Counted from the stretch's first letter, positions 10,510 to 27,663 are shown. The stretch: 64,000 nt of DNA from Candidatus Omnitrophota bacterium (GCA_022709525.1 JAKLIQ010000001.1:274679-338678); one strand, 5' to 3'. Numbers and translations: made by a program. Notes: a model not told the origin generated them from the sequence alone.

Positions 10510-10782
10510 GTGAAGGTTAAATGGTGCGTTGAAAAGGATCGGGTGCTTAAATTTCGTTACGGCATTTCTTTTGGAAGATTAATAAAATGCCGGAAAATAG
10601 GGGTAATGCCACATCCCGCAAGAAGGAACCAGCGGTTGATGTTTTTTGAGCGGGGAGGGTATGTGTGGGTCATTCCGTTTATACAAGGCGAAGATGAGCT
10701 ATTCTTGAAAACATTTTACCCGAGCCGGAAGTACACCCGGCTTTATAAAGAGGGGTGGTTCCATGAAAAAAAAGAAGATTGA
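10510..10782 (+). CDS. BrnT-like (DUF497 family) type II toxin
   Basis: ~90 aa. The central GISF... segment and the C-terminal ...GYVWVIPFIQGEDELFLKTFYPSRKYTRLYKE resemble the BrnT/DUF497 ribonuclease toxin layout. GTG start. It lies in an AT-rich insert between gltX and glnS. Confidence 0.5.
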   Translation: MKVKWCVEKDRVLKFRYGISFGRLIKCRKIGVMPHPARRNQRLMFFERGGYVWVIPFIQGEDELFLKTFYPSRKYTRLYKEGWFHEKKED

Positions 10783-11035
10783 TTGGGATAAGATCAAGTT
10801 GGATCCAGAAGAGCAGGAAATTGAGGATGCCGCCGGAACGGTTCCCTATGAACCGGTGAGTAAGGAAGAGTTTCTCAGGATCAAGGAAGCGATAGACCAG
10901 TATAACAAGAGCTCAGTGCTTAATATGCGCGTCAACCCTGACGTTATCATGAGAATCAAAGAAAAGGCAAAAAGGCTAGGTGTTAAATACCAAACTTTTA
11001 TTGCCGCAATTCTTGATCGGGTCGCGCGAAGCTAG
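10763..11035 (+). CDS. BrnA-like antitoxin (ribbon-helix-helix C-terminus)
   Basis: ~90 aa, overlaps the 3' end of the upstream toxin-like ORF by 20 nt. The C-terminus (MRVNPDVIMRIKEKAKRLGVKYQTFIAAILDRVA) is a typical CopG/RHH segment of BrnA-family antitoxins. Confidence 0.5.
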   Translation: MKKKKIDWDKIKLDPEEQEIEDAAGTVPYEPVSKEEFLRIKEAIDQYNKSSVLNMRVNPDVIMRIKEKAKRLGVKYQTFIAAILDRVARS

Positions 11036-11058: not shown

Positions 11059-12744
11059 ATGGAGCCCGAAAAGAAACCCTCTAACTTTATCCGCGACATC
11101 ATCGATCAGGATATCGCCAACGGCAAGAACGGCGGACGCGTCCACACGCGTTTTCCGCCGGAACCGAACGGCTATCTTCATATCGGACACGCCAAGGCCA
11201 TCTGCATTAGCTTCGGGATCGCGCGCGACTACAAAGGGCTTTGCAACCTCCGTTATGACGACACCAATCCCGTCAAAGAAGACGTCGAATACGTCGATTC
11301 GATCCGCGAAGACGTTCATTGGCTCGGCTTCGATTGGGGGGACCGGGAATATTACGCCTCCGATTATTTCGATCAGCTTCACCAGCACGCCATGACGCTT
11401 ATCAAAAAAGGGAAGGCCTACGTTTGCGATTTGAGTCCGGAGGAACAGCGCCTGCATCGCGGGACGCTCACGGCGCCGGGCAAAGAAAGCCCGAACCGCA
11501 GCCGGTCAGTCGAAGAGAATCTCGATCTTTTTGAGCGCATGCGAAAAGGCGAATTCGCCGAAGGGTCGCGGGTCCTGCGCGCGAAAATCGACATGAATTC
11601 GCCCAATATCAACATGCGCGATCCGACGATGTACCGGATCAAGAAAGCGTCGCATCACCGGACCGGCGACAAATGGTGTATTTATCCGATGTATGATTTC
11701 ACGCACTGCATCTCGGATTCGATCGAAGGGATCACGCACTCGCTTTGCACGCTCGAATTCGAGAACAACCGCCCGCTTTACGACTGGTTCCTGATCGAGC
11801 TCGGGATCCACCGCCCCCAACAAATTGAATTCGCGCGGCTGAATCTAACGCACACGGTCTTAAGCAAGCGCGTCCTTCTGAAACTGGTCCAGCAGAAAAC
11901 CGTCTCCGGATGGGATGATCCGCGGATGCCGACGATCTCCGGGTTTCGCCGCCGGGGCTATACGCCTTCTTCCATAAGGAATTTTTGCGATCAGATCGGT
12001 GTCGCGAAATTCAATAGCACGATCGACATGGTCGTGCTGGAGAATTCGATCCGCGAGGAGCTCAACAAGACTGCGCCGCGCATGATGGCTGTTTTGAAGC
12101 CGCTTAAAGTCGTGATCACGAATTATCCGGAAGGGAAGGCGGAGGACCTTGAGGCCGTCAATAATCCCGAAGACCTTTCCGCAGGTTCGCGTAAGATCCC
12201 TTTCAGCCGCGAGATCTATATCGAAGAAGAAGATTTCCGCGAAGTGCCGCCGCCGAAATATTTCCGATTGGCGCCCGGCCAGGAAGTGCGTCTCCGCTAC
12301 GCTTATTTCATCAAATGCGAAAAAGTGATCAAAGATCACGCGGGTAAGATTAAAGAAATTCATTGCACTTATGACCCCGCAACGCGGGGTGGGAATAATC
12401 CTCCGGACGGTCGCAAGGTCAAAGGGACGATCCATTGGGTTTCGGCCGAACACGCCGTTTCCCCGGAGGTTCGCCTTTACGATCATCTGTTTGCTGCCAA
12501 AGATCCCAATGATTTTCCCGAGGGGAAAGATATTTTTGTGAACCTGAATCCGAACTCATTGGAAATCCTGAAAAGCGCGAAGCTTGAGCCAGCATTAGCT
12601 CAAGTGAAAGCAGGAGAACGCGTCCAATTCGAACGGATGGGTTATTTTATTGCCGACGCTAAGGATTCCCAACCTGGCAAACCGGTTTTCAACCGTATTG
12701 TGACGCTTCGCGACACCTGGGGCAAGATCGAAAAAAAGAGTTAG
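11059..12744 (+). CDS. glnS: Glutaminyl-tRNA synthetase
   Basis: [25 protein letters not shown] (HIGH motif) and a GlnRS-type catalytic core with the C-terminal anticodon-binding beta-barrel region; 561 aa. Confidence 0.9.
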
Positions 12745-13045
12745 ACTGCCCGAACGCCACTCACAGACGACCTACTTTCCCCATTGAAATCCCGATCCTG
12801 CTTTACCGGGTGGCCAAGGGAGAGTGGAAGATCAAAAAAGTCGTTGATAAAACAACCGCTCTAAGGCGTGTTTACGATCCCATCAAATACAGGCCCAGAG
12901 TTGTCCGGGCGCCTTACCCGGGTCCCATGGGACATTCCAATTTTTACCAATGGTGTAGGCGGGAATTGTAGAGAGACATTTATAATAAAGGCCTGAAAAC
13001 AAGCTTCGCCCCAGGGCTTGGAACGGATAAACTCTATAGCAAGGC

Positions 13046-13076
13046 TTGACAATATCATATTCTGAATGCAGAATAT
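13046..13076 (+). promoter_or_regulatory. Candidate promoter/operator of the abiE pair: TTGACA -35-like hexamer followed by an 8-bp inverted repeat ATATTCTG-aatg-CAGAATAT
   Basis: TTGACA at 13046-13051 and a perfect 8-bp-arm palindrome at 13057-13076, ~20 nt upstream of the AbiEi start. AbiEi antitoxins are known to autorepress via inverted repeats in their promoter. Confidence 0.3.
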
Positions 13077-13094
13077 GTCCTGCGGAGACATAAA

Positions 13095-13928
13095 ATGACA
13101 TTAAAGTATAATGTTGCAAAAACCCTTGGTTCCAAGGCGGCCTTGCTGATTGCCGCACTCTACGAGGAGAAGCTCTCTATCTTCAGGTTAACGGATGTCC
13201 AAAGGATTTTGGCGATCAAAAAGCCGTCTGCCACAAATTTTGTTCGGAAACTCGTCAACAGGGGAATTGCATCAAGACTGAAGCCGGGGCTCTTTATCCT
13301 GGTTCCCTTTGAGTTGGGCAAAGAACGTGAATATTTGGGGGACCCCCTGATCGTCGCTCGTGAGATCGCCTGCGGCAAGGGATATTATTTTTCTCATGGC
13401 AGCGCGATGCAAATCCATCAAATGCTGACACAGCCCCAGTTACTTGTATACGCTTCGGTGCTCAAACCGCGGCGCCCGGTCCGCGTGCTCGGCGCTGAGT
13501 TCCAGTTCATCCACACGCCCAGGAAATACTTTTTTGGCGTCGCCGATCATTGGGCCACCAAAGAGACGCAAGTAAAAGTGAGCGATCTTGAGAAAACGGT
13601 GATCGACGGTCTGAGACAGCCTGAATATTGCGGAGGTTTGACCGAGGTCGCAAAAGGCCTTTGGATGAGGCATCAAGACATGAACCCCGCCCGCCTCATT
13701 GAATACGCAAAAAAAACCGGGGTCGGGGCCGTAGTACGCAGGTTGGGATATTTAATGGAACTTTACAAAATTGGAGCGGCCCAAGATCTGGAAGCACTGC
13801 AAAATACACTCACCGAAACTTATATGCGTTTGGATCCCCGCTTGCTGGCCGAGGGGAAATTCCTGCGTCGCTGGAGATTGCAGCTCAATGTTTCTCCGGA
13901 AGAACTCTTAGCCGTCGTGAGGACCTGA
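13095..13928 (+). CDS. AbiEi-like antitoxin/transcriptional regulator (type IV TA / abortive infection)
   Basis: 277 aa. The N-terminal wHTH-like region and overall layout match COG5340/AbiEi-family proteins. Its stop lies 3 nt before the AbiEii-like gene. Confidence 0.65.
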   Translation: MTLKYNVAKTLGSKAALLIAALYEEKLSIFRLTDVQRILAIKKPSATNFVRKLVNRGIASRLKPGLFILVPFELGKEREYLGDPLIVAREIACGKGYYFSHGSAMQIHQMLTQPQLLVYASVLKPRRPVRVLGAEFQFIHTPRKYFFGVADHWATKETQVKVSDLEKTVIDGLRQPEYCGGLTEVAKGLWMRHQDMNPARLIEYAKKTGVGAVVRRLGYLMELYKIGAAQDLEALQNTLTETYMRLDPRLLAEGKFLRRWRLQLNVSPEELLAVVRT

Positions 13929-13931
13929 CCC

Positions 13932-14765
13932 GTGATTCCTCAACGCAATCTCTCTCTACTCTCCAATGAACTTGCCCGCAAAGGCGGACGCCGTATTCCG
14001 GAATCCGTGCTTGAACGCGATTATTGCCTTTCATGGTTTCTCGTAGGCTTATCTCAATGCAGTCTTCGCGAGATCCTTTTATTCAAAGGCGGGACCGCGA
14101 TCAAGAAATGCCACATCGCTGATTACCGTTTTTCCGAAGATCTCGATTTCACTTTTGCGAATGAAATCCCTTTTGAGAAGGTCCAGGAAGACCTTGAACA
14201 AGTGTTCCCTAAAATCGAACAGCAATCGGGCATTAAATTCAATTTCAGCCGGCTTGACCGGCACGCCCATCAAAACAGCCACACTTTTTTTCTGGGTTAC
14301 GAAGGCCCTTTGCCGGCCATGGCTCCCAAGGAAGTCAAAGTGGACATTACGATCCGTGAACGGGTTGTCTTTTCGCCGCAGGAAAAGCCGGTTCTCGCGG
14401 AATACGCCCAATATGAGGACATCCCGAAGAATTCCAAGGTGCGTGTGTACTCCCTCGATGAAATAGCCTCTGAAAAGGTTGTTGCCCTCTCAGACCGAGC
14501 GCGGAATGAACCGCGCGATCTTTACGACTTGTGGCATCTCACCTCAAATCAGCATGTCGATATTGCAGAGATCTTCGACGCCATCGGTGAAAAGCTGACG
14601 TTCCGCAAAAGAAGTTCGGACACTGTGGGAGAAGAATTTTCCAAAAAAGAGGCGCGGCTCAAAAAGCTTTGGAGCGAGCGGCTTTCGGCCCAGGTTTCCG
14701 TACTCCCGGAATTCGACGAGGTTTACCGGACCGTAAAACGGGAACTCCGGCAAGCCGGATTTTGA
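13932..14765 (+). CDS. AbiEii/AbiGii-family nucleotidyltransferase toxin
   Basis: LFKGGTAIKKCH..YRFSEDLDFTF: the hallmark N-terminal motifs of the DUF1814/AbiEii nucleotidyltransferase family. GTG start. Confidence 0.75.
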   Translation: MIPQRNLSLLSNELARKGGRRIPESVLERDYCLSWFLVGLSQCSLREILLFKGGTAIKKCHIADYRFSEDLDFTFANEIPFEKVQEDLEQVFPKIEQQSGIKFNFSRLDRHAHQNSHTFFLGYEGPLPAMAPKEVKVDITIRERVVFSPQEKPVLAEYAQYEDIPKNSKVRVYSLDEIASEKVVALSDRARNEPRDLYDLWHLTSNQHVDIAEIFDAIGEKLTFRKRSSDTVGEEFSKKEARLKKLWSERLSAQVSVLPEFDEVYRTVKRELRQAGF

Positions 14766-14847
14766 AAGACCCCAGGACATTACTCTCGAGATTCAATTTA
14801 CAGCCTCTCCGCCTATCTGATTTACTGTCCGATGCGCATTCAAACGG

Positions 14848-16563
14848 CTACGGCTGAGCCGGTTCTTTCGGCTTCAGGTCCTGGATAATGCCGAGGACGC
14901 GGGGATCGTGGCGCAGGATGTCGGCCTTGATCTTGAGGACACGGGCGCGCAGATTCAGCATGTCTTCGGGCTTAAACCTTTTTTGATAAGGATCATAGTC
15001 CGTTTTCTCCGGATCCTTCCCCGGAACATAGAAAAAACGCCGTTCAATGCATCGCTGGCTTTGCCCGCGGTCGTACCGCGCCATAAAACCCACGCTGACC
15101 CGGCCCCCGCCGATCTCCCATAGCAGCATATTGCTCGCCCTAGCGGTCTCCCTGTTCATCAGTGCTTCAAAATCCCGTTTTTCTACGAGCCGATTATTCC
15201 CCTCAAAGATCCCTTCGTAGAACCGCTTGTATTCCTCGCTTTTCCAAACACTCTCAGGAACACCCGGAAGAAAGAGAGCGCTCCCATCCCGGTTTTTCCG
15301 GTAAAAGGAGCTGAGCCTTGATGAAAAGATCCGGCAGCATTCCGGGGATAGACCTTCAAGATGCGGCTCGAGTGGATACTCTTCCGTAAATTCCTCAGGA
15401 AAGAACAGATAGATGACGGCCTTTTCATTGCAAGAAGAGTACTTCATCCGCCCGGCCATCTCGCAGAAAAGACGGGAAAGAAAATACCGCATGAACTCCG
15501 TGCCTTTGCTTTCCAGCTCGATCAAAAGATGCTTCCCGGAATCCAGGATGTCCTTGATGTCCAAAGGATATCCCTGCGTGACGGGATATTTTTCGAGTCG
15601 CAGGGTATTTCCCCATTTCGTGAGTTTTTTTGCCAACTCAACGCGCGCTTTCCGGAGAGAATCAAAGCGCCATAGGTATTCCCGCGTCAGATCGATCTCG
15701 TTAAGCGCTATGGCTCCGCGCTTGTCCTCTAAGAGCAGAAGGAGATCCTCCAGCGTGTAGGGTTTCCCGCTTTTTTCAAGAGACGTCATCAGCCGTTCCA
15801 GGATACCCGCTCCCGGGCCGTCCCAATCAAGCTTAAGGTGGTCTTTCAAAAAATCAATACTCCCTTTCCCGTAAAATGGCGAATAACTCGCGGAAAGATC
15901 CGGTTGTTTTAACGAGAAGTAAAAAAAGGCTTGCCCCGTTTCGGAACCTCTTTCCCTTAACACATACGTTACTTCCCGGAGAAGGTCCTTCTGAGTCTCG
16001 GAGGCGAGGATCAGGACCGAATGGCCGTATTTAACGTCAGCTTCCAGCGCCTTTTGTAACGTGGAACGGGCGTAAGCTCCCGGCGGACCCAATACCTGCA
16101 GTGGGAAGGCGGGATCAAAAAGAGAAACTGAGACAGGATCACCCGTGACAAGATCCAGGCCCAGGACATCCCGGCTTTTCTGCCGGTCCATGGCGGCCTT
16201 TGCCGCCCGTATTTTTTTCGATCTCCTTCCAAGGATCCATGTTGAAAGAGCCAAGCTGGCCGCAAAAGAATGGGTCCACACCCAGAGCATAAAGATACTG
16301 CACCCATACAAAAATCCGGACTCCCACATCCCCCAAAATTGCTCTCCAAGGAATGGCATGAAGGAAAACCCACGCCCCCCGTGCATGGCATAGTCGATAA
16401 AATCATACGTCCACAAAATGGCTATGATAAGAAACGGGGAATAGCCGGGGACCGGGCCCAAAAACTTTCGGAGCGGCCAGGCACAGAATCGGCCAAGCCA
16501 GCAAGTCCAACCCAAACAAAGCATGAAGAAAACCTCCCAAAAACCCGGATATTCGTCGTCCAT
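14848..16563 (-). CDS. VirD4/TraD-like type IV coupling protein homologue with apparently degenerate Walker A/B motifs
   Basis: N-terminal hydrophobic helices are followed by a domain with the T4CP spacing pattern. The P-loop position reads VLGPPGAYARST (not GxxGxGK[ST]). It is followed by GHSVLILASETQ (where T4CPs have hhhhDpKGE) and ...FFYFSLKQPDLSASYSPF (where they have hhhhDP....NPL). A later hhhh-PEE stretch (IYLFFPEEF) sits at the Walker B DE position. The ATG at 16561-16563 overlaps the stop of the upstream gene by 1 nt (TGATG); the ORF track's longer start at 16656 is less likely. Confidence 0.45.
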   Translation of the reverse strand: MDDEYPGFWEVFFMLCLGWTCWLGRFCAWPLRKFLGPVPGYSPFLIIAILWTYDFIDYAMHGGRGFSFMPFLGEQFWGMWESGFLYGCSIFMLWVWTHSFAASLALSTWILGRRSKKIRAAKAAMDRQKSRDVLGLDLVTGDPVSVSLFDPAFPLQVLGPPGAYARSTLQKALEADVKYGHSVLILASETQKDLLREVTYVLRERGSETGQAFFYFSLKQPDLSASYSPFYGKGSIDFLKDHLKLDWDGPGAGILERLMTSLEKSGKPYTLEDLLLLLEDKRGAIALNEIDLTREYLWRFDSLRKARVELAKKLTKWGNTLRLEKYPVTQGYPLDIKDILDSGKHLLIELESKGTEFMRYFLSRLFCEMAGRMKYSSCNEKAVIYLFFPEEFTEEYPLEPHLEGLSPECCRIFSSRLSSFYRKNRDGSALFLPGVPESVWKSEEYKRFYEGIFEGNNRLVEKRDFEALMNRETARASNMLLWEIGGGRVSVGFMARYDRGQSQRCIERRFFYVPGKDPEKTDYDPYQKRFKPEDMLNLRARVLKIKADILRHDPRVLGIIQDLKPKEPAQP

Positions 16564-17318
16564 CAAAGCACCTCTTTTAAGGCGAAACTCCCGCGCCAGG
16601 TCCTCAGGACCGCCCGCTCCCCGAATTCCATGAGTTCCTTGTAGAGGACAAAGCACATGCGGTCAGCCCATCTTTCGCCCGCTTCTTTCATGACCTTTCC
16701 CCGGATGGAGGCATCCCCGCAAACATAGAAAATGTAACGTATCTTCGGATCGCGCTCATAGACCTCGAATATCTTCCGGTAGGTGTGTGCCTTCTTGACA
16801 TGCAGCTCCACTTCGATGGCGATCCCTTTGCCGTTCCTTCTAAATACGCCGTCCGGCACTTTCCGCTCTCCCTTCGTCCCAGCCCGTAATACTTTCTCGC
16901 TTTTCCAGTCTTTGCACATCCCGAGCCGCTCAAACAAGAACCTCACATCCGTCACTTTTTTGTCATGATCATAGAATGCGATCTCGATCGAATCCTGGGC
17001 ATCAGGAGCACCAAAGCCGCGAACGCCGACTATGCATCCGGCCTCTCTCAGAGCCTCTATACCCGCCTTACCTAAAAGATAGCTTTCAGGTTCGTCAGCT
17101 AAGGTTTTAACCGCTTTCAAATAGCCGAATTTTTTAAGCTTCCTGATCCGGATCTTGGCATAGCTTCTGGCTCCATCAAAGATGTTCTCGATCACATGAG
17201 GCCTTGTTAAAAACTTCTGTTCCACGATCATCTTCATCAGCCGGATATCCCTTTCCGTCACATCCAGATATTTCCAGTTCTGTTTCTTAGGTTCTCTCTT
17301 ACCAGGTGTAGCCTCCAT
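16563..17318 (-). CDS. Replication-relaxation family protein (plasmid/ICE-type wHTH protein)
   Basis: 251 aa; an N-terminal wHTH-like segment (LDVTERDIRLMKMIVEQKFLTRPHVIENIF...) and overall size match the replication-relaxation family, which is usually found beside coupling proteins on conjugative or mobilisable elements. Confidence 0.5.
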   Translation of the reverse strand: MEATPGKREPKKQNWKYLDVTERDIRLMKMIVEQKFLTRPHVIENIFDGARSYAKIRIRKLKKFGYLKAVKTLADEPESYLLGKAGIEALREAGCIVGVRGFGAPDAQDSIEIAFYDHDKKVTDVRFLFERLGMCKDWKSEKVLRAGTKGERKVPDGVFRRNGKGIAIEVELHVKKAHTYRKIFEVYERDPKIRYIFYVCGDASIRGKVMKEAGERWADRMCFVLYKELMEFGERAVLRTWRGSFALKEVL

Positions 17319-17348
17319 TTAATTATACCTCCGCCGATCAATCGTTTC

Positions 17349-17464
17349 TGTTTGCCCGCCACGATTCGACACCGAAGACCACACTCTCGCTCCCATAAGA
17401 GGAGAGAGTGTGGTCTTCGGTAACTGCTGCCAAAAGCAGTAGGGACGAAACGTGGCGGGCAAAC
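17349..17464. repeat. 116-bp nested inverted repeat (outer arms gtttgcccgccacgattcg/cgaaacgtggcgggcaaac; inner perfect 18-bp stem accgaagaccacactctc/gagagtgtggtcttcggt)
   Basis: Seen directly in the sequence. It lies in the 325-bp gap between the small ORF at 17644 and the replication-relaxation gene. It is a candidate oriT/nic region or a structured RNA. Confidence 0.6.
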
Positions 17465-17643
17465 GAGTTACGATGCTTTCGCCTCCACCTTGGTATATAC
17501 GCCCTGCGGAATACATACCAAAGTAGATCCGAAAGTGCAGGAAATCCCGAAAATCCAGATCATTTTCACCGGAGCTTTCATGGAATTTTTCAGGCCAGAA
17601 TTTGCGAGGGAATAGCCGCGAGTGTAGTGTTGCGGGGTTCATT

Positions 17644-17841
17644 TCAGGCGGTCTCTTTTGCCTTTTCCGGGGCCTGGCGGGCCGGGGCTTTCGGGTTTTT
17701 CAAAAGCCCGCGCTTCTCGGCAAGACGGAGCACGCCTTTGGCTAGAAGCTCGCAGGCTTGATCGAGCCTTTCTTCGTCGGAGAGATGGGCATAAACCCGG
17801 TAGACGGGACTTCTGAAGGTGTTCGGGGAAACCACTTTCAT
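17644..17841 (-). CDS. Small (65 aa) hypothetical protein translationally coupled to the upstream wHTH gene
   Basis: Its ATG overlaps the stop of the 17838-18308 ORF (ATGA). No recognisable motif. Confidence 0.35.
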   Translation of the reverse strand: MKVVSPNTFRSPVYRVYAHLSDEERLDQACELLAKGVLRLAEKRGLLKNPKAPARQAPEKAKETA

Positions 17842-18308
17842 TGCGGCTGCTTGTCCTCTACACCAAGAGCCGTGGGAAGGATCTGCTTGGCGCTTTCGGA
17901 AAGATAGAGAAGCTTGGGATTGCCGCGCTCAAGAAAACCAAATTCGATCAAAAGACGGATGCGCTGGAAACCGGCTTTGGCTTTCTTGGAACGGTTGTCC
18001 CAAAAACACCGGGAAAGATCCGCAGAGGTTTTCGCGCCCTCGACCTGCAAAAGCTGGAAGATCAAAAGATCGCGGGCTGTCAGTTGCACGGACCGGACTT
18101 TGGGGAACCTGCCGGGGATCCTATGGCTTTGGGATGTTGTTGGATTTTTTAAGCTTGCGGTTGCCTGTTGTAATGCCACTGCTTCAGTTGGTTCTTTGTG
18201 CATGGTGCATTCCGTTCCTTTCGGACCCTGGTAATCAAGCCTCCGGTGATGTGATGCCCCCTCATGGGACATGGAGTTAAGAGCTTGCCGTTCAACATTT
18301 ACGAACAT
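17838..18308 (-). CDS. Hypothetical wHTH-type DNA-binding protein
   Basis: The C-terminal half (LTARDLLIFQLLQVEGAKTSADLSRCFWDNRSKKAKAGFQRIRLLIEFGFLERG) looks like a winged helix. The true start is probably internal: M at 18272, or M at 18203 which is preceded by a GGAACGG RBS-like sequence. Confidence 0.4.
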   Translation of the reverse strand: MFVNVERQALNSMSHEGASHHRRLDYQGPKGTECTMHKEPTEAVALQQATASLKNPTTSQSHRIPGRFPKVRSVQLTARDLLIFQLLQVEGAKTSADLSRCFWDNRSKKAKAGFQRIRLLIEFGFLERGNPKLLYLSESAKQILPTALGVEDKQPQ

Positions 18309-18612
18309 TTCTAAGCTTGAAATAAATTTTCACGAACATCGATCAGATCCATTAAGCCCGCCGGAAAGACTCCGGATTCGCCGGAAACCAAAACATCAAT
18401 TCCCCCCAAACAAGCCTCTCATGGGAGGTCGAGTTACGACATGGACATTCACACCAAACGAACCTTTCTAAGCTAGAAATAAATTTTTCAGCGGTGTCGG
18501 CCGCGGGTGTTTTCGCTCCGTCGGCCTCCTTTCATCCCCTCATGGGAGGTCCGTTTAAGACAGGGGTGTGAACGTTTTGTGAAGGTTTTTAAGCTTGAAA
18601 CAAATTTTATCT
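18301..18612. repeat. Iteron-like direct repeats: three ~30-bp copies of acgaac(a/c)tttctaagct(t/a)gaaa(t/c)aaatttt and two ~20-bp copies of cc(t)ctcatgggaggtc(g/c)(a/t)tt
   Basis: A-type repeats at ~18301-18333, ~18458-18490 and ~18588-18612; B-type at ~18415-18435 and ~18537-18557. They lie in the 560-bp divergent intergenic region between the wHTH gene and the secreted calpain-like gene. Confidence 0.6.
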
Positions 18613-18984
18613 CAAGGTACCGACCACCCGGGTAAGAGCCCTGGAATGGTTAAGCTCATTGAAGGGTTAAAAACTTTGGGGATAAGGAAAAAGAAAACCG
18701 TCTTAAAGTTTTCTCGTCTTTTTTATGTTCGGTCTTCCAGGCGGATCCAGCCATTGCGGTGTGACGAAGAAATATTCGGAGAGGAGTAAGGGCCGAAAGA
18801 GCCCAGTATCGCTAGAACAAAAGATAGAAGAAACTATATTTCACTATAAACGCTAGTTTTTGCTATGAGGTATTTCGGGCAGGACTTCTTCAAAGGGTAT
18901 TTTAAGATGCTATTCTTTAGTCAGGATGAAGGAAGGTACCGTTGGAACAGCAATAAAGCGGAAGGTTACGCCAAACGGGTGAGA

Positions 18985-21900
18985 ATGATTATGCGAGACG
19001 CAAAGAAGGTGAATACGAAAAAGCTCATCGCTATTTTTACTGCCATCAGTTTGGCATTTTTGCAGGCCGCCCCGGTTGGAGTCGCGGCAAATACCCCTGC
19101 TGATCAGCTTGATGGTAGTGGAGTACATGTACCTGTCAAGTCTGCCACAGATGCACCATCGGAACCCTCGTCTGCGCAGGCGGTAATTCCTCCCAATTTT
19201 TTGATGGATACTGGCGGAATATCAAAAACCGAGGAAACGGAAATTCCGCAAAATGATGAAATCCAGGCGGTTAATCAAGCATTGGACAGTGATCAGCAAG
19301 ATGCTGTTAGTGAATTGGCCCAATATGCTCAAAACCTGACAGATTCAGCACAGCACACCCAATTTGAGGCAGCGTTATCGGAGGCTGCGCCGGATGCTCA
19401 ATACCGATACCGAATTGGTGCTAATGGCGATCAGAGCTGGTCGTGGACGAGCGCGGATGGTGAGACAACCTATACTTTGCATCAGGATCATCGCATGGTC
19501 CCGATCGGGATCGACGGGCAGATGGAAGAGGAAATTCTCTGGAGTTTTGAAGCTTTAAGCATTGTTATGAAAACAGAAGTAGAGCAATGCAGGAGCCAAC
19601 TTCCAGCCGATTCACTGGCCTACTTTGAGGAAGCGCTATCGCAAACAGATGATACAACTGTATTCTCAAGAACCACAATCGGGACGGATACCATTTATCA
19701 ATGGAACGACAAATCGGACGCATCAAAACTTTACACGATTTCTTTTCATCCTGGGCCCAGCGGGACTATCGAAGCGGCTTTCAGCGTTCAAATTGCGATG
19801 ATGCCTTGGGGACTAACGCATTTGGGGCCGATGTTAACAGATATGGCGCAAAGGACACAATTTGAAACAGCCATTTTAGATGTCGCTCCACTTACCCGTG
19901 ATAATTTTGAAACACTCCTTTTGAGAACGACAGATTCAATCGGACGAGTCACATCCTGGACCTGGACGAGCGCGGATGGGCAGACGACGTATGTTTTGCG
20001 CCAGGATCGACGCATAGTTCCTGTTGGAATTGATGGAGAGACGCACGAAGAGGTTCAGTGGAGTTTTGAAATAAAGAGTCAGATATCGGCGTCAGAGGTT
20101 CAGGAAAATATCAACCAAATTGCAAATGAATATGTTCGGGATCAGGCGCAGCAAGCTTTTGATCAATCCGTAGATAATGGGCAACAGACTTTTACAAAGA
20201 TTGTAAACGGTGGAGACATTATCTATCAATGGAATGATGTTATGGATGCATCGGTGGTCCAAACCCTTTTTTACGCACAAAGCCCAATGGGTGGTAACTG
20301 GTCTTTCAGTACGCAAACAGCTTTGGCACCTCAAGGTCTTTCACATCTTGCGGAGAACCTAACGGAAGTTGCTCAACGCGCCCAGTTTGAAACAGCGATC
20401 CTGGATGCCGCGCCATTGAGTCAGGATAATTGGCAGACGCTTCTTACGAGAATCACGGATACCAATGGTCGCGTTACCTCGTGGAGTTGGGTAAATGCTG
20501 ATGGAGGAACGACATATACCTTGCACGAAGATAAGACAACAGCTGGCGCTTCGACATGGAGTTTTGTCGCCGTAATCCAAGTTTCAACCGAGGAAACAAG
20601 GCAAGAGCTCATGTCGTGGGGGACAACTTCTCCTGAACACCTTCAAGTCTTTGAACAAGCGGTTCAACTTGGAGCTGTGTTTACTAAAACCATAAGCGGC
20701 GATCAAGTAAGCTATCAATGGAATTTGCCAATGAGCGGGCTGGCACAATATACCCAAAACCTGACGGATCCAGAACAGCGTACCCAGTTTGAAGCAGCCC
20801 TTTTGGCCGGCGGATACAGCACTCAGTCCTTCAATGGCGGCGGCTCTAATTCTTGGCGTTGGACAAGCGCGGACGGAAATACGGTTTATTTATTGGTTAA
20901 TAATAAATTTCAAGTGCCTATGCCGGACGGCAGCCAGTGGTTTATTGATGAATGGGGATTTTCAGCTGAAAACCAAGTGAGTGCTCAGGACATTAGGGAT
21001 CAGTTGCAAAATATCGGAACTCCCGAGGAACGCAATATGGCGGAGAATGCAATTGCTGACGGAGCGGTATTCAAAAAAATCACAATGGGCGCAACGGCTC
21101 AGTTCCAATGGGAAAGCGTTAGCGACCCAGAGCTTACTTATCAGCTTATGATTATTGACGATAGACTATCGTTTGCTACGATGTTTAATCAAGCTTCGGA
21201 CATTCAGTATGATGCTCAAGGCAATGTAATCAGTACTACATATCGAAACTATGACTGGGATTCCTTGCTTTGGCTGTATATGCCTTCATACGCTACAGTC
21301 TATCCCTCGCCCTCGACAATAAAATATTATGACTCGCAGGGAAATCTCCTTCGCGAATTAATATGGGGCGAATATGGAAACAGAACTCTAATTGTCTATG
21401 GTGACGCCTCCGTAATGGAGATTCCTGGAAAAGTCGAGGTCTATAGCTTTGATCAAAATCTTTATTCCACGCTTTATTATGATCAAAGGGGCTTCCTCAT
21501 ATCTTATGAAGTTTTACCCACTTTTATGAATCAGCTTCGGGCAGCTTTTCCGGCTTTTGAAGTTTCTTCACCGGTTTATATTTCAGGCAGCAACCCTTCT
21601 CTTTTTCAAATTACTATCACCAATCCATCGCCTGCTATGGGGGCATTAAATCAAATGAGTTTCCATGTGGATCAGGAGGGACAAATAGATTTTGATACGC
21701 TCGAAATCACCTATGAAGATACGGAATTTCAATGGTTTGGGGATCAGCTTCTTCTAGGACAAGTAAAAGATTTGCAGCCGAACGCCAATGATATTGAGAT
21801 CCTTACTCTAATATCTCAATTAACCATCGATTATGTCGACACGAACGGAACGATCCAGTTTACTTTGAATGGAACGCCTTACATGGCGGACGCAACGCTA

Positions 21901-23319
21901 TTTTCCATTATTGATACTTACTTGTACGACGATGCCGTGATAAATCGATCAGAAATGCTGTCGCTTTTTGATCGGGTTGAAGATGATGGCATTGTTTCTA
22001 ACGTTGAGTTTAACATTTTAAAAGCGATACAAAACAATCCTAATCATTATCCGGAGCTTGATTATGTGCGTAATCTCACGGATGCGGTAGTCTTTGGTTC
22101 CCTTGCCAATGCCACCTACCAGGGAACTCTGTTGGGGAATCTTTATGGCGGCTCGACTGCAGACCACCTAGAGAAACTGGTGAATAAATGGTTCTTAGGT
22201 TTGGATCATCCGCTTGTGACTACAGATTACTATGGTACTCCTATTTATCAGCAAGTTGCCGGCAATCTTTTTGTGGATGGTGTAAGCTATGCCGATATAT
22301 CACAAGGTGTTATCGGGGATTGTTATTTAATAGCTGCGCTGGGTGAAACGGCGCTTCGAACTCCGGACATTATTACCGATATGTTTATTGACAATGGTGA
22401 CGGCACCTACACGGTTCGATTTTTTAAGGATGGCATGGCCGAATATGTCACTGTTGATCGTCAGCTCCCGGTTCTTTCAGAATTTTTGATTTATGGCGGT
22501 TCGGCTGGTGGAACAACACATATGGCTGATCCCGATGCTGAATTATGGGTAGCGTTAGCTGAAAAGGCTTATGCCCAAATAAATGCAAAATGGAATTCTT
22601 ATGCAGAAAACTCTTATGATGACATCGGTAGAGGCGGGTATATTGATCGAGCCCTTCAAGCGATTACCGGTTTTGCAACTAATACATATGATCTTTTGAA
22701 TAACTTTACCTCAATAGTGTCATCTTGGGCAGCCGGCGGTCTCATAGGGTTGGCGTCGCGGTACGATGCCGTTTCCCCCGTAGTGAGCGGCCACGCGTAT
22801 ACACTGGTAGATTACGATGCGGTAACGCAACTATTTACGCTCTTGAATCCATGGGGGCTCGTCATGACTAATCTTTTGACATTGACTTGGAGTGAGCTTG
22901 AACGGAGCTTCGAAAATTTTTCTGTGGCAACTGGAAGTACAAATACCACGGCGGCAGAACTTGTTTCCAACCCTCAAACAGAAGGCCAGTCCACAACCGG
23001 TTCTGCAGAGGTCGCGTCCCAGAGAAATCCATCTTATGAATCAGTTGTTCAGCTTGAAGCTGCGCCAAATAAAGATGCCGCTGAAAATGTGTTGGATGTG
23101 GGTCTCGAAAAGGAAGAGCAAGAACGACCTGAGGTGGTAGAAAAAAGCACTAAACGCTTTAGAAATCGTTCCGAAAGGCGCTCCAGGGACAGCTATCAGA
23201 CCAGCACTGTTGAAGCGAAACACTTTTTTAGCGAACCGCTTTCCTATCAAAGCGTACTCGATGATTTTTTGTTTCAAAACTTTATCGCACACATGACCCA
23301 AAAGCGTCTCACGGGCTAA
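18985..23319 (+). CDS. Secreted ~1440-aa tandem-repeat protein with a C-terminal calpain-type (peptidase C2-like) cysteine protease domain
   Basis: The likely start MIMRDAKKVNTKKLIAIFTAISLAFLQAAPVGVAA is a signal peptide. The ATG at 18985 follows GGTGAG; the ORF track starts at 18865. Four ~170-aa repeats contain TQFE(A/T)A(L/I)L...W(S/T)WTSADG.TTY.L.QD.R.VP.GIDG..EE..WSFE. The C-terminal domain has QGVIGDCYLIAALG (calpain catalytic Cys), ~165 aa later SGHAYTLVDYD (His), and LLNPWG (Asn). The gene is visibly more AT-rich than its neighbours. Confidence 0.7.
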   Translation: MIMRDAKKVNTKKLIAIFTAISLAFLQAAPVGVAANTPADQLDGSGVHVPVKSATDAPSEPSSAQAVIPPNFLMDTGGISKTEETEIPQNDEIQAVNQALDSDQQDAVSELAQYAQNLTDSAQHTQFEAALSEAAPDAQYRYRIGANGDQSWSWTSADGETTYTLHQDHRMVPIGIDGQMEEEILWSFEALSIVMKTEVEQCRSQLPADSLAYFEEALSQTDDTTVFSRTTIGTDTIYQWNDKSDASKLYTISFHPGPSGTIEAAFSVQIAMMPWGLTHLGPMLTDMAQRTQFETAILDVAPLTRDNFETLLLRTTDSIGRVTSWTWTSADGQTTYVLRQDRRIVPVGIDGETHEEVQWSFEIKSQISASEVQENINQIANEYVRDQAQQAFDQSVDNGQQTFTKIVNGGDIIYQWNDVMDASVVQTLFYAQSPMGGNWSFSTQTALAPQGLSHLAENLTEVAQRAQFETAILDAAPLSQDNWQTLLTRITDTNGRVTSWSWVNADGGTTYTLHEDKTTAGASTWSFVAVIQVSTEETRQELMSWGTTSPEHLQVFEQAVQLGAVFTKTISGDQVSYQWNLPMSGLAQYTQNLTDPEQRTQFEAALLAGGYSTQSFNGGGSNSWRWTSADGNTVYLLVNNKFQVPMPDGSQWFIDEWGFSAENQVSAQDIRDQLQNIGTPEERNMAENAIADGAVFKKITMGATAQFQWESVSDPELTYQLMIIDDRLSFATMFNQASDIQYDAQGNVISTTYRNYDWDSLLWLYMPSYATVYPSPSTIKYYDSQGNLLRELIWGEYGNRTLIVYGDASVMEIPGKVEVYSFDQNLYSTLYYDQRGFLISYEVLPTFMNQLRAAFPAFEVSSPVYISGSNPSLFQITITNPSPAMGALNQMSFHVDQEGQIDFDTLEITYEDTEFQWFGDQLLLGQVKDLQPNANDIEILTLISQLTIDYVDTNGTIQFTLNGTPYMADATLFSIIDTYLYDDAVINRSEMLSLFDRVEDDGIVSNVEFNILKAIQNNPNHYPELDYVRNLTDAVVFGSLANATYQGTLLGNLYGGSTADHLEKLVNKWFLGLDHPLVTTDYYGTPIYQQVAGNLFVDGVSYADISQGVIGDCYLIAALGETALRTPDIITDMFIDNGDGTYTVRFFKDGMAEYVTVDRQLPVLSEFLIYGGSAGGTTHMADPDAELWVALAEKAYAQINAKWNSYAENSYDDIGRGGYIDRALQAITGFATNTYDLLNNFTSIVSSWAAGGLIGLASRYDAVSPVVSGHAYTLVDYDAVTQLFTLLNPWGLVMTNLLTLTWSELERSFENFSVATGSTNTTAAELVSNPQTEGQSTTGSAEVASQRNPSYESVVQLEAAPNKDAAENVLDVGLEKEEQERPEVVEKSTKRFRNRSERRSRDSYQTSTVEAKHFFSEPLSYQSVLDDFLFQNFIAHMTQKRLTG

Positions 23320-23451
23320 TGGTTTCCCTAGCGCTTCAAAATCTTTTGGCAAGACTGCGGTAAAGCAATTTTGACCCGCGGGTCGGAAGTTTTGCCTTTG
23401 GCCCGCTTTAAAATGTCTTTCTTTTTTTGCCTCGAACAGATAATATGCGCC

Positions 23452-25158
23452 ATGCACCCCGAACAGAAGAAAGACAGATTCGTTAATTGCGCCGTTTATA
23501 CCCGCGTATCCGTCGATGAGCGAGCCGCGACGCAAGCTTATTCCACGCTCGACAATCAACGGGATAGCTGTCTCTCCTATATCGAAAGTCAAAAGTCCGA
23601 GGGCTGGCGAGTCTTTAAAACCTATGAAGACTCCGGCCAGTCCGGCGGATCGCTTAACCGCCCCGCCATCAAGCAGTTGATCCATGACATCAAGAAAAAG
23701 CTCATCCAGGTTGTCGTTGTTTACAAGATCGACCGTCTCACGCGAAGCCACCGGGATTTTTATTCGCTTCTGGAAGTTCTGAACGAAAACGGCGTTACCT
23801 TCGTTTCCACCACCCAGCATTTTGAAACCAACTCCCCGGCGGGAAGGCTTTTATTGCACGTCATGCTTGAGTTCGCGCAATTCGAACGGGAAATGGCACA
23901 GGAGCGGACGTACGACAAACGCATCGCGATGGCTCGTAAAGGCATGTACTGCGGAGGAAGGGTGCCGCTTGGATACGACACAAAGAACAAGAAGCTTATC
24001 ATCAATCCCGAAGAGGCCAAGATCGTGCAGCTTTGTTTTGAGCTTTATCCTAAACTCGGGTCCATGGCAAGGGTCAGCCAGCGGTTGAACGAGCTGGGTT
24101 ATCGCACGAAAAAATTCTACGACAAAAGCAAAAAAAACACCGGAAGCAGAGGAAGCATCAAATTTGATAAAAAGAAAGTTTCGACGATCCTGGCCAATCC
24201 TCTGTATATCGGGAAGGTGCGTTTTGTAGATAAAAGCAAAAAAACCTATCTTTTTGATGGGGAGCACAAACCTATCATTAAAGATCTTAAGGTCTGGGAT
24301 GGGGTCCAGAACCTGCTCGTCAGTAACCGCGAAACCCGCAAGAGTTTTAAACAGAATAAATATGAAATGCTCTTTCAGGGTCTTGTCCGCTGCGGAGAAT
24401 GCGGAAGTACGATGAGCAATGCCTCCAAAAGAAAAAACGGGAAGGTTTATCTTTATTATCGCTGTATCGAGGCCATCGCGAAGGGCAAGGATTATTGCTC
24501 CATTCGTACTGTTTCCGGAGAAGCGCTTGAGGAGCTTCTTATTGCAGAATTTAAGGCCCTCGGCAAAAATCAGACGCTTCTCAGGAGATCCATTGAAAAG
24601 GCTAACGGTTTGGCCAAGAAGGGACTTGCGCCCTTGCAGAGGGAGAAAGACGCTGTGGAGGCCCAATTAACGAAAATAAACGGGGATTTAAAGCGGCTGG
24701 TAAATATCATGAAGTCCGAAGATATGCCTCAGAGAAGAGTTCAAACCCTTCTGAGCGAAATGTCGGACCTGGAAGCATCCAAGGAAAAGCTGGAATATGA
24801 GACCCACCGCATTAATACCAACATGCACCATCTTAGCCGGCACGTTATCGACGCGGAGACCTTCACCAAGCTTTTTGCGGAGTTCCCGGCAGTTTTCGAC
24901 ACCTTTGACTTTGAGGAAAGAAGGAAACTCATTGTTCTCTTGGTCAAAGAAGTGATTTATACTCCAACCAAGATCACCGTTAAATTCTGGGGGGATTTAC
25001 CAGAAATGGATTTTGACATTAAGCATCCGCCGGACTGGACACCGCCGCCGGATGACGATGGTGGAGAGGCTAGGGGTAGACCCGGAAATTCCGCCACACA
25101 ACCGGCGGGCAGGCAGGTTTGCTCAAGAGTGTCGAATGGCTGGGGAACTAGGATTTGA
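23452..25158 (+). CDS. Large serine recombinase (resolvase/invertase catalytic domain + recombinase + zinc-ribbon/coiled-coil regions)
   Basis: N-terminal CAVYTRVSVDE...QRD and VVVVYKIDRLTRS motifs of the serine-recombinase catalytic domain. A Cys-rich CGECGSTMS...YRC zinc-ribbon segment is present. The length (~570 aa) is typical of phage/ICE large serine integrases. The 3' end as called overlaps tRNA-Gln, so the true C-terminus is uncertain. Confidence 0.8.
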   Translation: MHPEQKKDRFVNCAVYTRVSVDERAATQAYSTLDNQRDSCLSYIESQKSEGWRVFKTYEDSGQSGGSLNRPAIKQLIHDIKKKLIQVVVVYKIDRLTRSHRDFYSLLEVLNENGVTFVSTTQHFETNSPAGRLLLHVMLEFAQFEREMAQERTYDKRIAMARKGMYCGGRVPLGYDTKNKKLIINPEEAKIVQLCFELYPKLGSMARVSQRLNELGYRTKKFYDKSKKNTGSRGSIKFDKKKVSTILANPLYIGKVRFVDKSKKTYLFDGEHKPIIKDLKVWDGVQNLLVSNRETRKSFKQNKYEMLFQGLVRCGECGSTMSNASKRKNGKVYLYYRCIEAIAKGKDYCSIRTVSGEALEELLIAEFKALGKNQTLLRRSIEKANGLAKKGLAPLQREKDAVEAQLTKINGDLKRLVNIMKSEDMPQRRVQTLLSEMSDLEASKEKLEYETHRINTNMHHLSRHVIDAETFTKLFAEFPAVFDTFDFEERRKLIVLLVKEVIYTPTKITVKFWGDLPEMDFDIKHPPDWTPPPDDDGGEARGRPGNSATQPAGRQVCSRVSNGWGTRI

Positions 25159-25210
25159 ACCTAGACTAGGTGATCCAGAGTCACCTGTGCTACCGTTACA
25201 CCATTCCCCA
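25137..25210 (-). tRNA. tRNA-Gln (anticodon CUG)
   Basis: The reverse complement folds as a cloverleaf: acceptor TGGGGAA/TTCCCCA, anticodon stem GGTGA/TCACC with loop CTCTGGA (anticodon CTG), T-arm CTAGG-TTCAAAT-CCTAG, discriminator G and an encoded CCA. Confidence 0.8.
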
Positions 25211-25867: not shown

Positions 25868-27214
25868 ATGACGGTCCGAGGATTGAAAGAATGGGCTAAG
25901 GTTGCGGAGGTCTTTCTTTGGCTGATTTTAGGAGCCACCACCGTTTTTTACGTGATCTCCATAAAATGGCCGCTATTCTTAGACATCAGTTATTACTTCA
26001 TCGTTACTCTCCTGGTCGTGGATTCAGCTTTCTCTTATTGGTTCACGACAAGTGTTTTTAATGATAAAAAATTCGTTCCTCTTCCAACAGCTGAAAACAA
26101 ACCGGTTCCCAGGACCACGTTTATTGTCAGCGCCTATCTGCCCAACGAAGTGGCGGTCATTGAATGCACGCTCCTGAACATTCTTCAAAAAGTCAAAAGG
26201 CCGGCTGACGGCATCGAGGTCATTTTGGCTTACAACACGCCTCATATGGAGGAACTTGAACTAAAGCTTCGGGAGCTTACTTACCGGTGGCCTGAACTGA
26301 TCCTTGCCAATGCTTACGGGTCACGGAGCAAAAGCGAAAATCTAAATTACGCGATCGATCTGGCAAGCGGTCGCATGATAGCACTCTTGGATGCGGATCA
26401 TCTGGTCTCAGAAGATTGTCTCGCGCTTGCCTGGCGATGGCTTGATGAAGGTTACGATGTGGCGCAAGGCAGGTGCAAGGTGCGTAACTGTGAGGAAAGT
26501 ATTCTCGCGAAGCTTGTCGAGATCGAATTCGAGATCATTTACGGCGTTAATCATCTGTCCCGGTCGATCATTTTTGACACGGCCCTTTTCGGAGGGTCCA
26601 ACGGATATTGGAAAGTCGAGGTCCTAAAAAAAGTGAAATTTCTTGAGAATATGCTGACCGAAGATATCGATACAACGCTTCGCGGGGTTCTCGAGGGTTA
26701 CCGGTTCGTGCATGATCGCAGCATTGTCTCTTCGGAATTGGCCCCGACAACGATCCCAAGCTTTTGGTTTCAAAGAAAACGATGGTCTCAGGGGTGGTTC
26801 GAATGTTCGATGAAATATCAAATAGCCATTTGGAGAAATCGGTATTTGAATTTCCAACAAAAATTCATATGGACCATGCTTTTGACCTGGCGCATATTTT
26901 TTGATGTGGTCAGCATGCTGCTTTTTCCGGTCGTTTTTGCTTTCTGGCTTCATTTGGGAAGGATCGCCTTTCCCGTGAATGCGTACATTCTTTTTGCATT
27001 AGTTTTCATTCTTTTTAGCGGGCCTTATCAGGCGTTGATCGCCTATAAAAACGCCGCTCCACCGAAAGCTCCGGTCTGGGAATATCTATTCTATTCTTTC
27101 TTTGTATGGCCCTACACCGTGTTCAAAACCGTTATCCACATCATCGCCATCCGGGATCAGCTAGCAGGGGAGCATTCGTGGATTGTTTCAAAAAGGACCG
27201 CGGCAAAAATATGA
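25868..27214 (+). CDS. Family 2 glycosyltransferase, membrane-integrated processive synthase type (cellulose/chitin/hyaluronan-synthase-like)
   Basis: N-terminal and C-terminal TM helices; GT-A core with DAD (LLDADH), TED (LTEDID) and the Q..RW motif (FQRKRWSQGW). Confidence 0.75.
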   Translation: MTVRGLKEWAKVAEVFLWLILGATTVFYVISIKWPLFLDISYYFIVTLLVVDSAFSYWFTTSVFNDKKFVPLPTAENKPVPRTTFIVSAYLPNEVAVIECTLLNILQKVKRPADGIEVILAYNTPHMEELELKLRELTYRWPELILANAYGSRSKSENLNYAIDLASGRMIALLDADHLVSEDCLALAWRWLDEGYDVAQGRCKVRNCEESILAKLVEIEFEIIYGVNHLSRSIIFDTALFGGSNGYWKVEVLKKVKFLENMLTEDIDTTLRGVLEGYRFVHDRSIVSSELAPTTIPSFWFQRKRWSQGWFECSMKYQIAIWRNRYLNFQQKFIWTMLLTWRIFFDVVSMLLFPVVFAFWLHLGRIAFPVNAYILFALVFILFSGPYQALIAYKNAAPPKAPVWEYLFYSFFVWPYTVFKTVIHIIAIRDQLAGEHSWIVSKRTAAKI

Positions 27215-27663
27215 AACTAAAGGGACATAAAGACTTTATGAGCGAAGCTATCCGGGAAGCCCGGAAAGGCCTTCGCGAAGGAGGCATTCCGATCGGTTCG
27301 GTTCTGGTCAAACGGGGCAGGGTGATCGGTCGCGGGCATAACCGGCGCGTCCAAAAAAGATCGGCCGTTCTTCACGCGGAAATGGATTGTCTCGAGAATG
27401 CGGGACGGCTTAGCGCCAAAGATTATAAAAAATGCGTGATCTATTCGACGCTTTCACCCTGTGATATGTGTACTGGCGCCATCCTTCTCTACAAGATCCC
27501 CATCGTCGTGATCGGCGAGAACAAAACTTTCAAAGGTCCGGAAGCTTATTTTAAAAAACGGGATGTTAAAATCATCAATTTGGATCTTGTCGAATGCAAA
27601 AAAATGATGAGAAATTTTATTGCCGCAAAACCCGGTCTCTGGAACGAAGATATCGGAAAATAA
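27211..27663 (+). CDS. CDA-fold zinc deaminase (TadA/guanine-deaminase-like)
   Basis: H-A-E zinc motif (VLHAEMDCLENAG) and PC..C motif (TLSPCDMCTGAI). The ATG overlaps the GT2 stop by 4 nt (ATGA). The ORF track's upstream extension lies inside the GT2 gene and is rejected. Confidence 0.7.
   Translation: MKLKGHKDFMSEAIREARKGLREGGIPIGSVLVKRGRVIGRGHNRRVQKRSAVLHAEMDCLENAGRLSAKDYKKCVIYSTLSPCDMCTGAILLYKIPIVVIGENKTFKGPEAYFKKRDVKIINLDLVECKKMMRNFIAAKPGLWNEDIGK

Follow-up and report, generated by a model that had tools for sequence, protein, structure and literature searches.

What is a calpain-type cysteine protease doing at the end of a repeat protein carried on a mobile element? This question is raised by a gene at 18985..23319 (+) in a stretch of 64,000 nucleotides from Candidatus Omnitrophota bacterium (GCA_022709525.1, JAKLIQ010000001.1:274679-338678), which in its full length is referred to below as the window. 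The gene encodes 1,444 amino acids (aa), its coordinates including the stop codon. The original prediction, made from the sequence alone, described a secreted protein consisting of a Sec-type signal peptide, four tandem repeats, a non-repetitive middle region, and a C-terminal calpain-type domain, located on a mobile island. The results presented here suggest that the product is probably an exported modular Omnitrophota protein, in which a calpain-type protease is mounted on a repeat scaffold, and that its gene travels on a mobile element.

The full open reading frame (ORF) spans 18865..23319 (+) and the Joint Genome Institute (JGI) gene call starts at the upstream ATG at 18865. The likely start is nevertheless the ATG at 18985, from which residues are numbered. 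It is favoured because the homologues P0002, P0003, P0005, and P0006 begin at an equivalent leader. In a look-up of exact sequences the product of the 18985 start had no entry, and that of the 18865 start is in the database. From its N-terminus the protein is composed of a hydrophobic leader, a linker, four repeats, a stretch resembling YD repeats (YD-like stretch), a segment here called module X, a calpain-type module, and a tail.

The bacterial C2 (calpain-type) protease module occupies aa 981-1332 (21925..22980 (+)) and begins with a helical pre-region, after which come the PC1 and PC2 subdomains. The Pfam family Peptidase_C2 (PF00648) matches aa 1094-1293 (22264..22863 (+)) with a score of 84.3 bits against a cut-off of 23.8 (E 1e-23). 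Nineteen calpain sequences from the PDB match at E <= 6e-5, calpain-1, -2, and -9 among them at E 1e-10 to 1e-8. In the alignment to PDB calpains the GDCYL, GHAY, and NPWG motifs of the protein correspond to GDCWL, GHAY, and NPWG, respectively. Q1107, C1113, H1270, and N1288 are aligned to Q109 (the Gln of the oxyanion hole), C115, H272, and N296 of calpain-1. This alignment places the catalytic codons at 22321..22323 (Cys1113, in GDCYL), 22792..22794 (His1270, in SGHAY), and 22846..22848 (Asn1288, in NPWG), all on the + strand. Cys1113 and His1270 are separated by 157 residues, equal to the distance between Cys115 and His272 in human calpain-1; the figure of about 165 given originally was too high. 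A further 18 residues separate His1270 from Asn1288. When the query was aligned with the 120 homologues closest to it (121 sequences), no variation was seen at the Gln, Cys, or His, or at the Trp of NPWG; the Asn is found in 120 of the 121. The entire 1,444-aa protein contains only two cysteines, Cys202 and the catalytic Cys1113.

The predicted structure agrees with the sequence matches. An AlphaFold2 model of the 352-aa module, built with 23 homologues, has a mean predicted local distance difference test score (pLDDT) of 89.4 and a predicted template modelling score (pTM) of 0.89. Foldseek searches of the PDB with this model returned calpain protease cores as all of the best 40 matches (E 1.2e-17 to 1e-11, ~290 aligned columns, TM 0.5-0.64), and the next-best fold class was 13 orders of magnitude worse. 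The model thus contains a papain-like core of two subdomains, PC1 and PC2, and the triad would superpose on the calpain active site, judging from the sequence and fold alignments. The order of Cys, His, and Asn in the original prediction was borne out by the alignment with the calpain active site and by its conservation in the 120 closest homologues; the profile search and the structure prediction which had been proposed as checks both returned calpain. By its sequence this is a complete C2-family cysteine protease module with Gln, Cys, His, and Asn in place, and a predicted enzyme.

At E <= 0.001, a search with aa 981-1332 found homologues in at least 827 clusters, of which the best 120 are 42-50% identical to the query over 88-98% of the module, the helical pre-region included. 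Where named, the homologues are "C2 family cysteine protease" or "peptidase C2 calpain" proteins of Cyanobacteria (Calothrix, Fortiea, Scytonema, Brasilonema) and Planctomycetes (Lacipirellulaceae, Pirellulales). The statement that calpain-type domains are rare in bacteria agrees with a 2015 survey, which listed 67 homologues (PMC4631099), but homologues of the module now fill at least 827 clusters. On sequence grounds the protease module is an ordinary member of a much-enlarged bacterial C2 set and not an exotic one.

Two calcium sites, 1 and 2, are defined in the calpain core, and some bacterial homologues, cyanobacterial ones included, have site 1 alone (Rawlings, PMC4631099). The query retains the site-1 residues, with V1097, G1099, and D1104 contributed by LFVDGVSYADI and E1186 by AELW. 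Over the 121 aligned sequences this Asp is invariant, and the Glu is found in 105. The chain after NPWG is ~30 residues shorter than in calpain, with the Pfam match stopping at model position 245 of 297, and the loop bearing calcium site 2 is therefore missing. No calpain domain III or penta-EF-hand was found, and besides Peptidase_C2 no Pfam family matches the C-terminal 470 aa at E <= 1. The sequence thus describes a member of the C2 family, yet not a classical calpain switched by calcium at two sites.

The features of the N-terminus point to export. The Sec-type leader (18985..19089 (+)) consists of aa 1-35, MIMRDAKKVNTKKLIAIFTAISLAFLQAAPVGVAA|N, with basic residues ahead of a hydrophobic core and a small-x-small ending that fits a V-A-A cleavage site (VAA|N). 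It is the sole hydrophobic segment of the whole protein, and there are no transmembrane segments beyond it. The signal peptide of the original prediction therefore stands, as a prediction from these sequence features. The leader is conserved as a sequence (AIFTAISLAFLQAxPxGxAA), beyond mere hydrophobicity, in P0002, P0003, P0005, P0006, P0142, P0143, and P0147, and may be a lineage-specific export or sorting signal. The same leader heads proteins with quite different bodies, proteins with RHS repeats among them. It is followed in the query by the linker (aa 36-107; 19090..19305 (+)), which is rich in Asp, Ala, Pro, Gln, and Ser.

The repeats were detected by BLAST of fragments against the whole protein and by a hidden Markov model (HMM) of the units; BLAST of the whole protein against itself gave the identity match only. 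Four tandem units were recovered, as originally predicted, of 130-175 aa each and 31-51% identical, with E-values down to 4e-41. They are referred to here as WTSADG repeats. R1 spans aa 108-276 (19306..19812 (+); YAQNLTD...SWSWTSADGETTY...VFSRTTIGTDTIYQW) and R2 spans aa 277-451 (19813..20337 (+)). R3 (aa 452-582; 20338..20730 (+)) is shortened and lacks the last beta-strands. R4 (aa 583-~741; 20731..21207 (+)) is the most divergent of the four. In the AlphaFold2 model of R1 (pLDDT 93.2) long antiparallel strands are accompanied by three helices. The repeat has no match in Pfam, PHROG, or PDB, in line with the first impression that it resembled nothing familiar, and its model has no significant fold match in the PDB. 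A single marginal match to Pfam RHS_repeat, 22.9 bits against a cut-off of 22, lies in R3 (aa 486-506). The RHS core motif PxxxxDPxGL was searched for in the protein and not found.

The region between the repeats and the protease had been called non-repetitive. It does lie outside the WTSADG repeats, but it holds two recognisable parts. The YD-like stretch (aa 742-845; 21208..21519 (+)) contains three YDxxG motifs, at aa 742, 782, and 832, and a segment including them (aa 735-842) matches P0001, P0003, and P0147. Module X (aa 846-968; 21520..21888 (+)), with the consensus PPAVQAYV...GAIHF...YKAYRD, matches a module which occurs several times over in P0002, P0005, P0142, and P0147.

The protein ends in a tail of 112 aa (22981..23316 (+)), of low complexity and rich in Glu, Ser, and Arg. 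Only its first residues were included in the AlphaFold2 model, where their pLDDT is <50. A frameshift masking another C-terminus was looked for in the other two frames and no continuation was found. P0001, P0003, and P0162 have K-rich tails, and homology between these and the tail of the query would have indicated a protease inserted into a gene of the repeat family. This was rejected, the Smith-Waterman scores being no better than those of shuffled sequences (z <= 1.1).

The scaffold belongs to a small family of proteins. A search with the whole protein found seven proteins only. Among these P0001 (GCA_035454205.1, an Omnitrophota metagenome-assembled genome (MAG)), P0002, and P0003 contain the repeats and no protease, and P0005 and P0006 are 39-44% identical over the leader and linker and have genuine Pfam RHS repeats. 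A profile of 13 repeat units was then scored against all 1.84 billion representative proteins, giving 74 matches at E <= 0.001 and 40 at E <= 1e-10. Those at the weak end resemble Ig-type "YQW" repeats and are apparently unrelated. A profile of the protease module, applied to the 74, matched none of them, and in the family members which were scanned Pfam domains are essentially absent. An alignment of seven repeat sequences was also scanned over 185,579 species-representative genomes and the JGI metagenome contigs. Two loci were found in the genomes and three in the metagenome contigs, none with a protease module, a serine recombinase, or other island genes. P0001 and P0003 are encoded on the chromosome at a conserved locus, where the gene stands between DUF3307 and a response regulator, with inositol phosphatase next. 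The N-terminal ~970 aa are thus, as far as sequence can tell, a rare and undescribed repeat family seen in Omnitrophota-type contigs. The fusion of this scaffold to a C2 protease is unique in all databases searched, and both parts occur separately elsewhere.

The gene lies on an inserted element of ~12.4 kb (12745..25139), delimited by synteny from the stop codon of the glutaminyl-tRNA synthetase (GlnRS) gene to the 3' end of tRNA-Gln. In the relatives L006, L007, and L008 the genes for NAD kinase, a response regulator, glutamyl-tRNA synthetase (GluRS), GlnRS, and tRNA-Gln follow one another in this order, the tRNA being within ~200 bp of GlnRS. In L006, with a GlnRS 91% identical to that of the window, the gap between GlnRS and tRNA-Gln is 195 bp as opposed to 12.4 kb. 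GlnRS ends at 12744 in the window, and the tRNA-Gln (CTG; 25137..25210 (-)), whose 3' end is the right edge of the insertion, is 100% identical to that of L006 over 72 aligned nt. Nucleotide similarity to L006 ends at the GlnRS stop codon and restarts exactly at the tRNA 3' end; the left edge of the element is resolved to 12745-13095, about 350 bp.

A large serine recombinase is encoded at the right end of the element (23371..25158 (+)), with the domains Resolvase (PF00239), Recombinase (PF07508), and Zn_ribbon_recom (PF13408) and a match to the integrase family phrog_95 (E 1.6e-116). Its ORF is not in the JGI gene calls. With its last 19-22 nt, which include the stop codon, this ORF reaches into the 3' end of the tRNA-Gln gene on the other strand, and the recombinase gene thus overlaps at its end with the attachment site. 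Direct repeats of at least 9 nt were not found at the two element edges. Serine recombinases use a short crossover site, and no long edge repeat is therefore expected. Synteny, together with the recombinase at one end, supports the view that the fusion gene is carried on an integrated mobile element. The "mobile island next to a recombinase" of the original prediction is thereby upheld, because the comparison with relatives adds to the adjacent recombinase.

The window lies within contig Ga0116241_10000025 of JGI metagenome 3300010429, which is 550,887 bp long. Many MAGs labelled Candidatus Omnitrophota or Omnitrophica have a GlnRS with 85-91% identity to that of the window, which places the host in Omnitrophota. 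The GC content of third codon positions (GC3) is 0.42 in the fusion gene, 0.61-0.68 in host genes, and 0.55-0.61 in the other island genes. Along the gene it is even: the repeats, the middle region, the protease module, and the tail all fall within 0.40-0.44. Low GC3, even over all parts, weakly suggests that the gene arrived from elsewhere already fused.

A working model can be proposed from these results. The conserved Sec-type leader would take the protein across the inner membrane. The first ~970 aa, with four alpha/beta WTSADG repeats, three YD-like hairpins, and one module X, would form a non-enzymatic scaffold, serving as a stalk or a binding array. The papain-fold C2 protease would most likely cleave proteins outside the cytoplasm, either in the environment or on the cell surface of a host or prey. 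A single Ca2+ may be bound at calpain site 1, and the classical two-site calcium switch would not be usable because the site-2 loop is deleted. The gene would be cargo of the ~12.4-kb element, integrated beside tRNA-Gln by the large serine recombinase, and thus an accessory, horizontally moved trait. Omnitrophota have been proposed to be mostly predators or parasites, whose large and poorly annotated surface proteins are thought to attach to and degrade target cells (PMC10066038; bioRxiv 10.1101/2023.11.21.568195). An accessory exported protease would fit such a lifestyle. In this model we infer the export past the inner membrane, the enzymatic activity, the role of the scaffold, and the substrate; the effector or toxin-processing role which had been suggested originally would likewise be conjectural.

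A rival reading takes the protein for an effector similar to polymorphic toxins. As an RHS-like effector it would consist of a leader and repeats forming a delivery region, with exchangeable C-termini, and the C2 protease would be the toxic payload, delivered to a competitor or prey cell, or a peptidase that releases one. The family members do share the leader, module X, and repeats and differ in their C-termini, P0005 and P0006 combine the same leader with genuine RHS repeats, and the query itself has the three YDxxG motifs and the borderline RHS_repeat match. A calpain homologue of Salinispora is fused to Tox-PL and deaminase domains (Rawlings, PMC4631099). However, the marginal match is the only one and the RHS core motif is absent. 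No small immunity-type ORF is found downstream, where the recombinase ORF begins only 52 nt away, and the protease is followed by no globular domain that could be released, only by the disordered 112-aa tail. The island also has no genes for a type VI secretion system, Tc, or another delivery system. A toxin of this type is therefore considered unlikely.

The target of the protease might instead be the cell's own proteins. A periplasmic or cell-envelope enzyme, for example one which matures large surface proteins, would be in the right place, because a Sec leader without a recognisable outer-membrane targeting signal predicts a periplasmic location, and peptidase domains in giant Omnitrophota proteins have been proposed to cut those proteins into smaller ones (bioRxiv 10.1101/2023.11.21.568195). 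An island that is strain-specific and absent in close relatives would be an unexpected place for such a housekeeping enzyme, present there as single-copy cargo, and the protease is missing from the other 73 representatives of the repeat family. This makes an internal maturation role improbable. The gene could finally be an assembly chimera of an Omnitrophota repeat gene and the protease gene of another organism, since its architecture is unique in the databases and the named homologues of the module come from Cyanobacteria and Planctomycetes, not Omnitrophota. But a single unbroken frame of 4.3 kb runs over the join, well within the 550,887-bp contig, GC3 does not change along the gene, and both flanks are syntenic with Omnitrophota relatives. 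An artefact of this kind is highly improbable.

The preferred reading, an exported protease on a repeat scaffold acting outside the cytoplasm, has points against it as well. No outer-membrane export or anchoring signal was recognised in the protein. Omnitrophota are presumed to have two membranes, and a Sec leader alone would predict that the protein stays in the periplasm. In addition, low GC3 is not clean evidence of foreign origin, because a chromosomally encoded member of the family, in L003, is likewise poorer in GC than its flanks.

A bolder extension of the preferred reading can be drawn by analogy. Giant Omnitrophota proteins are predicted to form tubules of antiparallel beta-sheet with exterior helices, resembling RHS shells (bioRxiv 10.1101/2023.11.21.568195). 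The WTSADG repeats, YD hairpins, and module X might together build a new beta-rich filament or shell, a miniature version of such an "Archaeovorin" tubule. In this family predatory or parasitic Omnitrophota would then possess a polymorphic delivery platform, directed by the leader and with exchangeable C-terminal domains, and the island member would be a horizontally mobile predation weapon presenting a calpain-type protease at the surface of the host or prey cell. This extension is speculative and rather unlikely to be correct as a whole.

The remaining genes of the element are arranged to the left of the fusion gene. An AbiEi/AbiEii toxin-antitoxin pair (13095..14765 (+)) is followed by an orphan ORF (14848..16656 (-)), which encodes 602 aa from the longest start and 571 aa in the JGI call, and by a gene for a Replication-relaxation family protein (PF13814; 16563..17318 (-)). 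The orphan ORF has no sequence match in Pfam, PHROG, or PDB; by its position beside the Replic_Relax gene it could encode the replication or transfer protein of the element. Small ORFs without a Pfam or PHROG match are also found on the element.

Between the Replic_Relax side of the island and the fusion gene there are three direct repeats of ~73 nt within 18258..18608 (+), at 18258-18330, 18415-18487, and 18536-18608. They are 68-75% identical, start with CCYCTCATGGGA, and end with AAGCTTGAAATAAATTTT. A partial core is present at 17391-17402 (-), and the core of the repeat occurs four times in the window, where 0.72 occurrences are expected by chance. The repeats may be iterons or repeated promoter or 5' regions. 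A scan for the sigma-70 consensus upstream of the fusion gene found no promoter.

Other features lie in the flanks of the element. At the start of the window an ORF of 2,515 aa (77-7624 (+)) has no Pfam family at E <= 0.1 and ends in a hydrophobic helix; it is unlike the repeat family. In L006 and L007, DXP synthase and a small S4-like gene are found upstream of NAD kinase, without nucleotide similarity to the 77-7624 stretch. Two overlapping ORFs of 90 aa lie between GluRS and GlnRS (10510-11035 (+)), the second of which matches CopG/BrnA antitoxin profiles. Because the gap between GluRS and GlnRS is only 32 nt in L006, the pair probably represents a small toxin-antitoxin insertion. Past the tRNA, a GT2 glycosyltransferase gene and a deaminase gene (25868-27663) are also GC-poor, at 0.46-0.47. 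Of these two, the deaminase gene has a nucleotide match in L006, at 79% identity, and the GT2 gene has none. A second variable region thus seems to border the island beyond the tRNA.

The locus indicates that a lineage-specific export scaffold can acquire a complete C2 protease module and that an integrative element can carry such a fusion. It also brings to light a small family of unannotated repeat proteins with leaders, in a phylum whose members are believed to live as predators or parasites. Bacterial calpain homologues are known from sequence surveys and are almost unstudied biochemically. The protein is a natural single-site version of calpain, of use for understanding how calcium dependence evolved. 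At 1.4 kaa the protein is a tractable entry into the function of the surface "dark matter" of Omnitrophota. None of these findings overturns current understanding. The enzyme class is known; the host phylum, the 980-aa scaffold of an undescribed family, the extra tail, and the location on a serine-recombinase island are new. In the library of papers searched, calpain and Omnitrophota are nowhere mentioned together, and neither the sample nor the contig is mentioned.

Among known systems, the closest to the protease module are the bacterial C2 proteases of Fortiea contorta, Calothrix, and Lacipirellulaceae (P0010, P0021, P0113). Their identity to the 352-aa module is 44-50% over 93-95% of its length. 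They have the same pre-region and conserved Gln, Cys, His, Asn, and Trp, retain site 1, and have a shortened PC2. These proteins are ~500 aa long (median 508, maximum 614) and carry the module at the extreme C-terminus, after an N-terminal extension with a median of 157 and a maximum of 277 aa, in which PPC, HemolysinCabind, or dockerin domains are often found. The query differs from them in the 980 aa of unrelated scaffold before the module, the 112-aa tail after it, its integrative element, and its Omnitrophota host.

To our knowledge, the only bacterial calpain-like peptidase that has been studied biochemically is Tpr of Porphyromonas gingivalis. Tpr is much smaller and has no repeat scaffold. 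The likeness lies in membership of the C2 family in a bacterium and in a role outside the cytoplasm, which for the query is a predicted one. No homologue named Tpr is present among the best 120 of at least 827 module matches. Tpr is discussed in the survey of Rawlings (2015; PMC4631099), whose 67 bacterial calpain homologues came from seven phyla and were called rare. The architectures in that survey were varied and the peptidase was usually C-terminal, a signal peptide was predicted in only 3 of 66, and the genes were all ordinary chromosomal ones, with no bacterial calpain on plasmids. A further survey, of cyanobacterial calpains, dates from 2022 (PMC9380684).

Eukaryotic classical calpains (calpain-1, -2, -3, and -9; PDB 1tl9, 2p0r, 6bjd) share with the query the predicted fold, the catalytic residues, the Cys-His distance of 157, and the site-1 ligands. 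Their identity to the query is only 19-24%, and they differ from it in that the query has the site-2 loop deleted and no detected domain III or penta-EF-hand. In addition, calpains are cytosolic, whereas the query has an export leader.

The scaffold has its counterparts in the secreted repeat proteins of Omnitrophota (P0001, P0002, P0003, P0142, P0143, P0147), which have a leader, WTSADG repeats (30-38% identity), a YD-like stretch, and module X in common with the query. These proteins have no protease or Pfam domain, and P0001 and P0003 are chromosomal, not on an island. The giant "Archaeovorins" of Omnitrophota can be likened to the query by description only, being >30,000 aa long compared to 1,444 aa here. 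The strands and helices of the repeat model are also the ingredients of the RHS-like tubules described for them in the preprint, a likeness to be taken as a lead.

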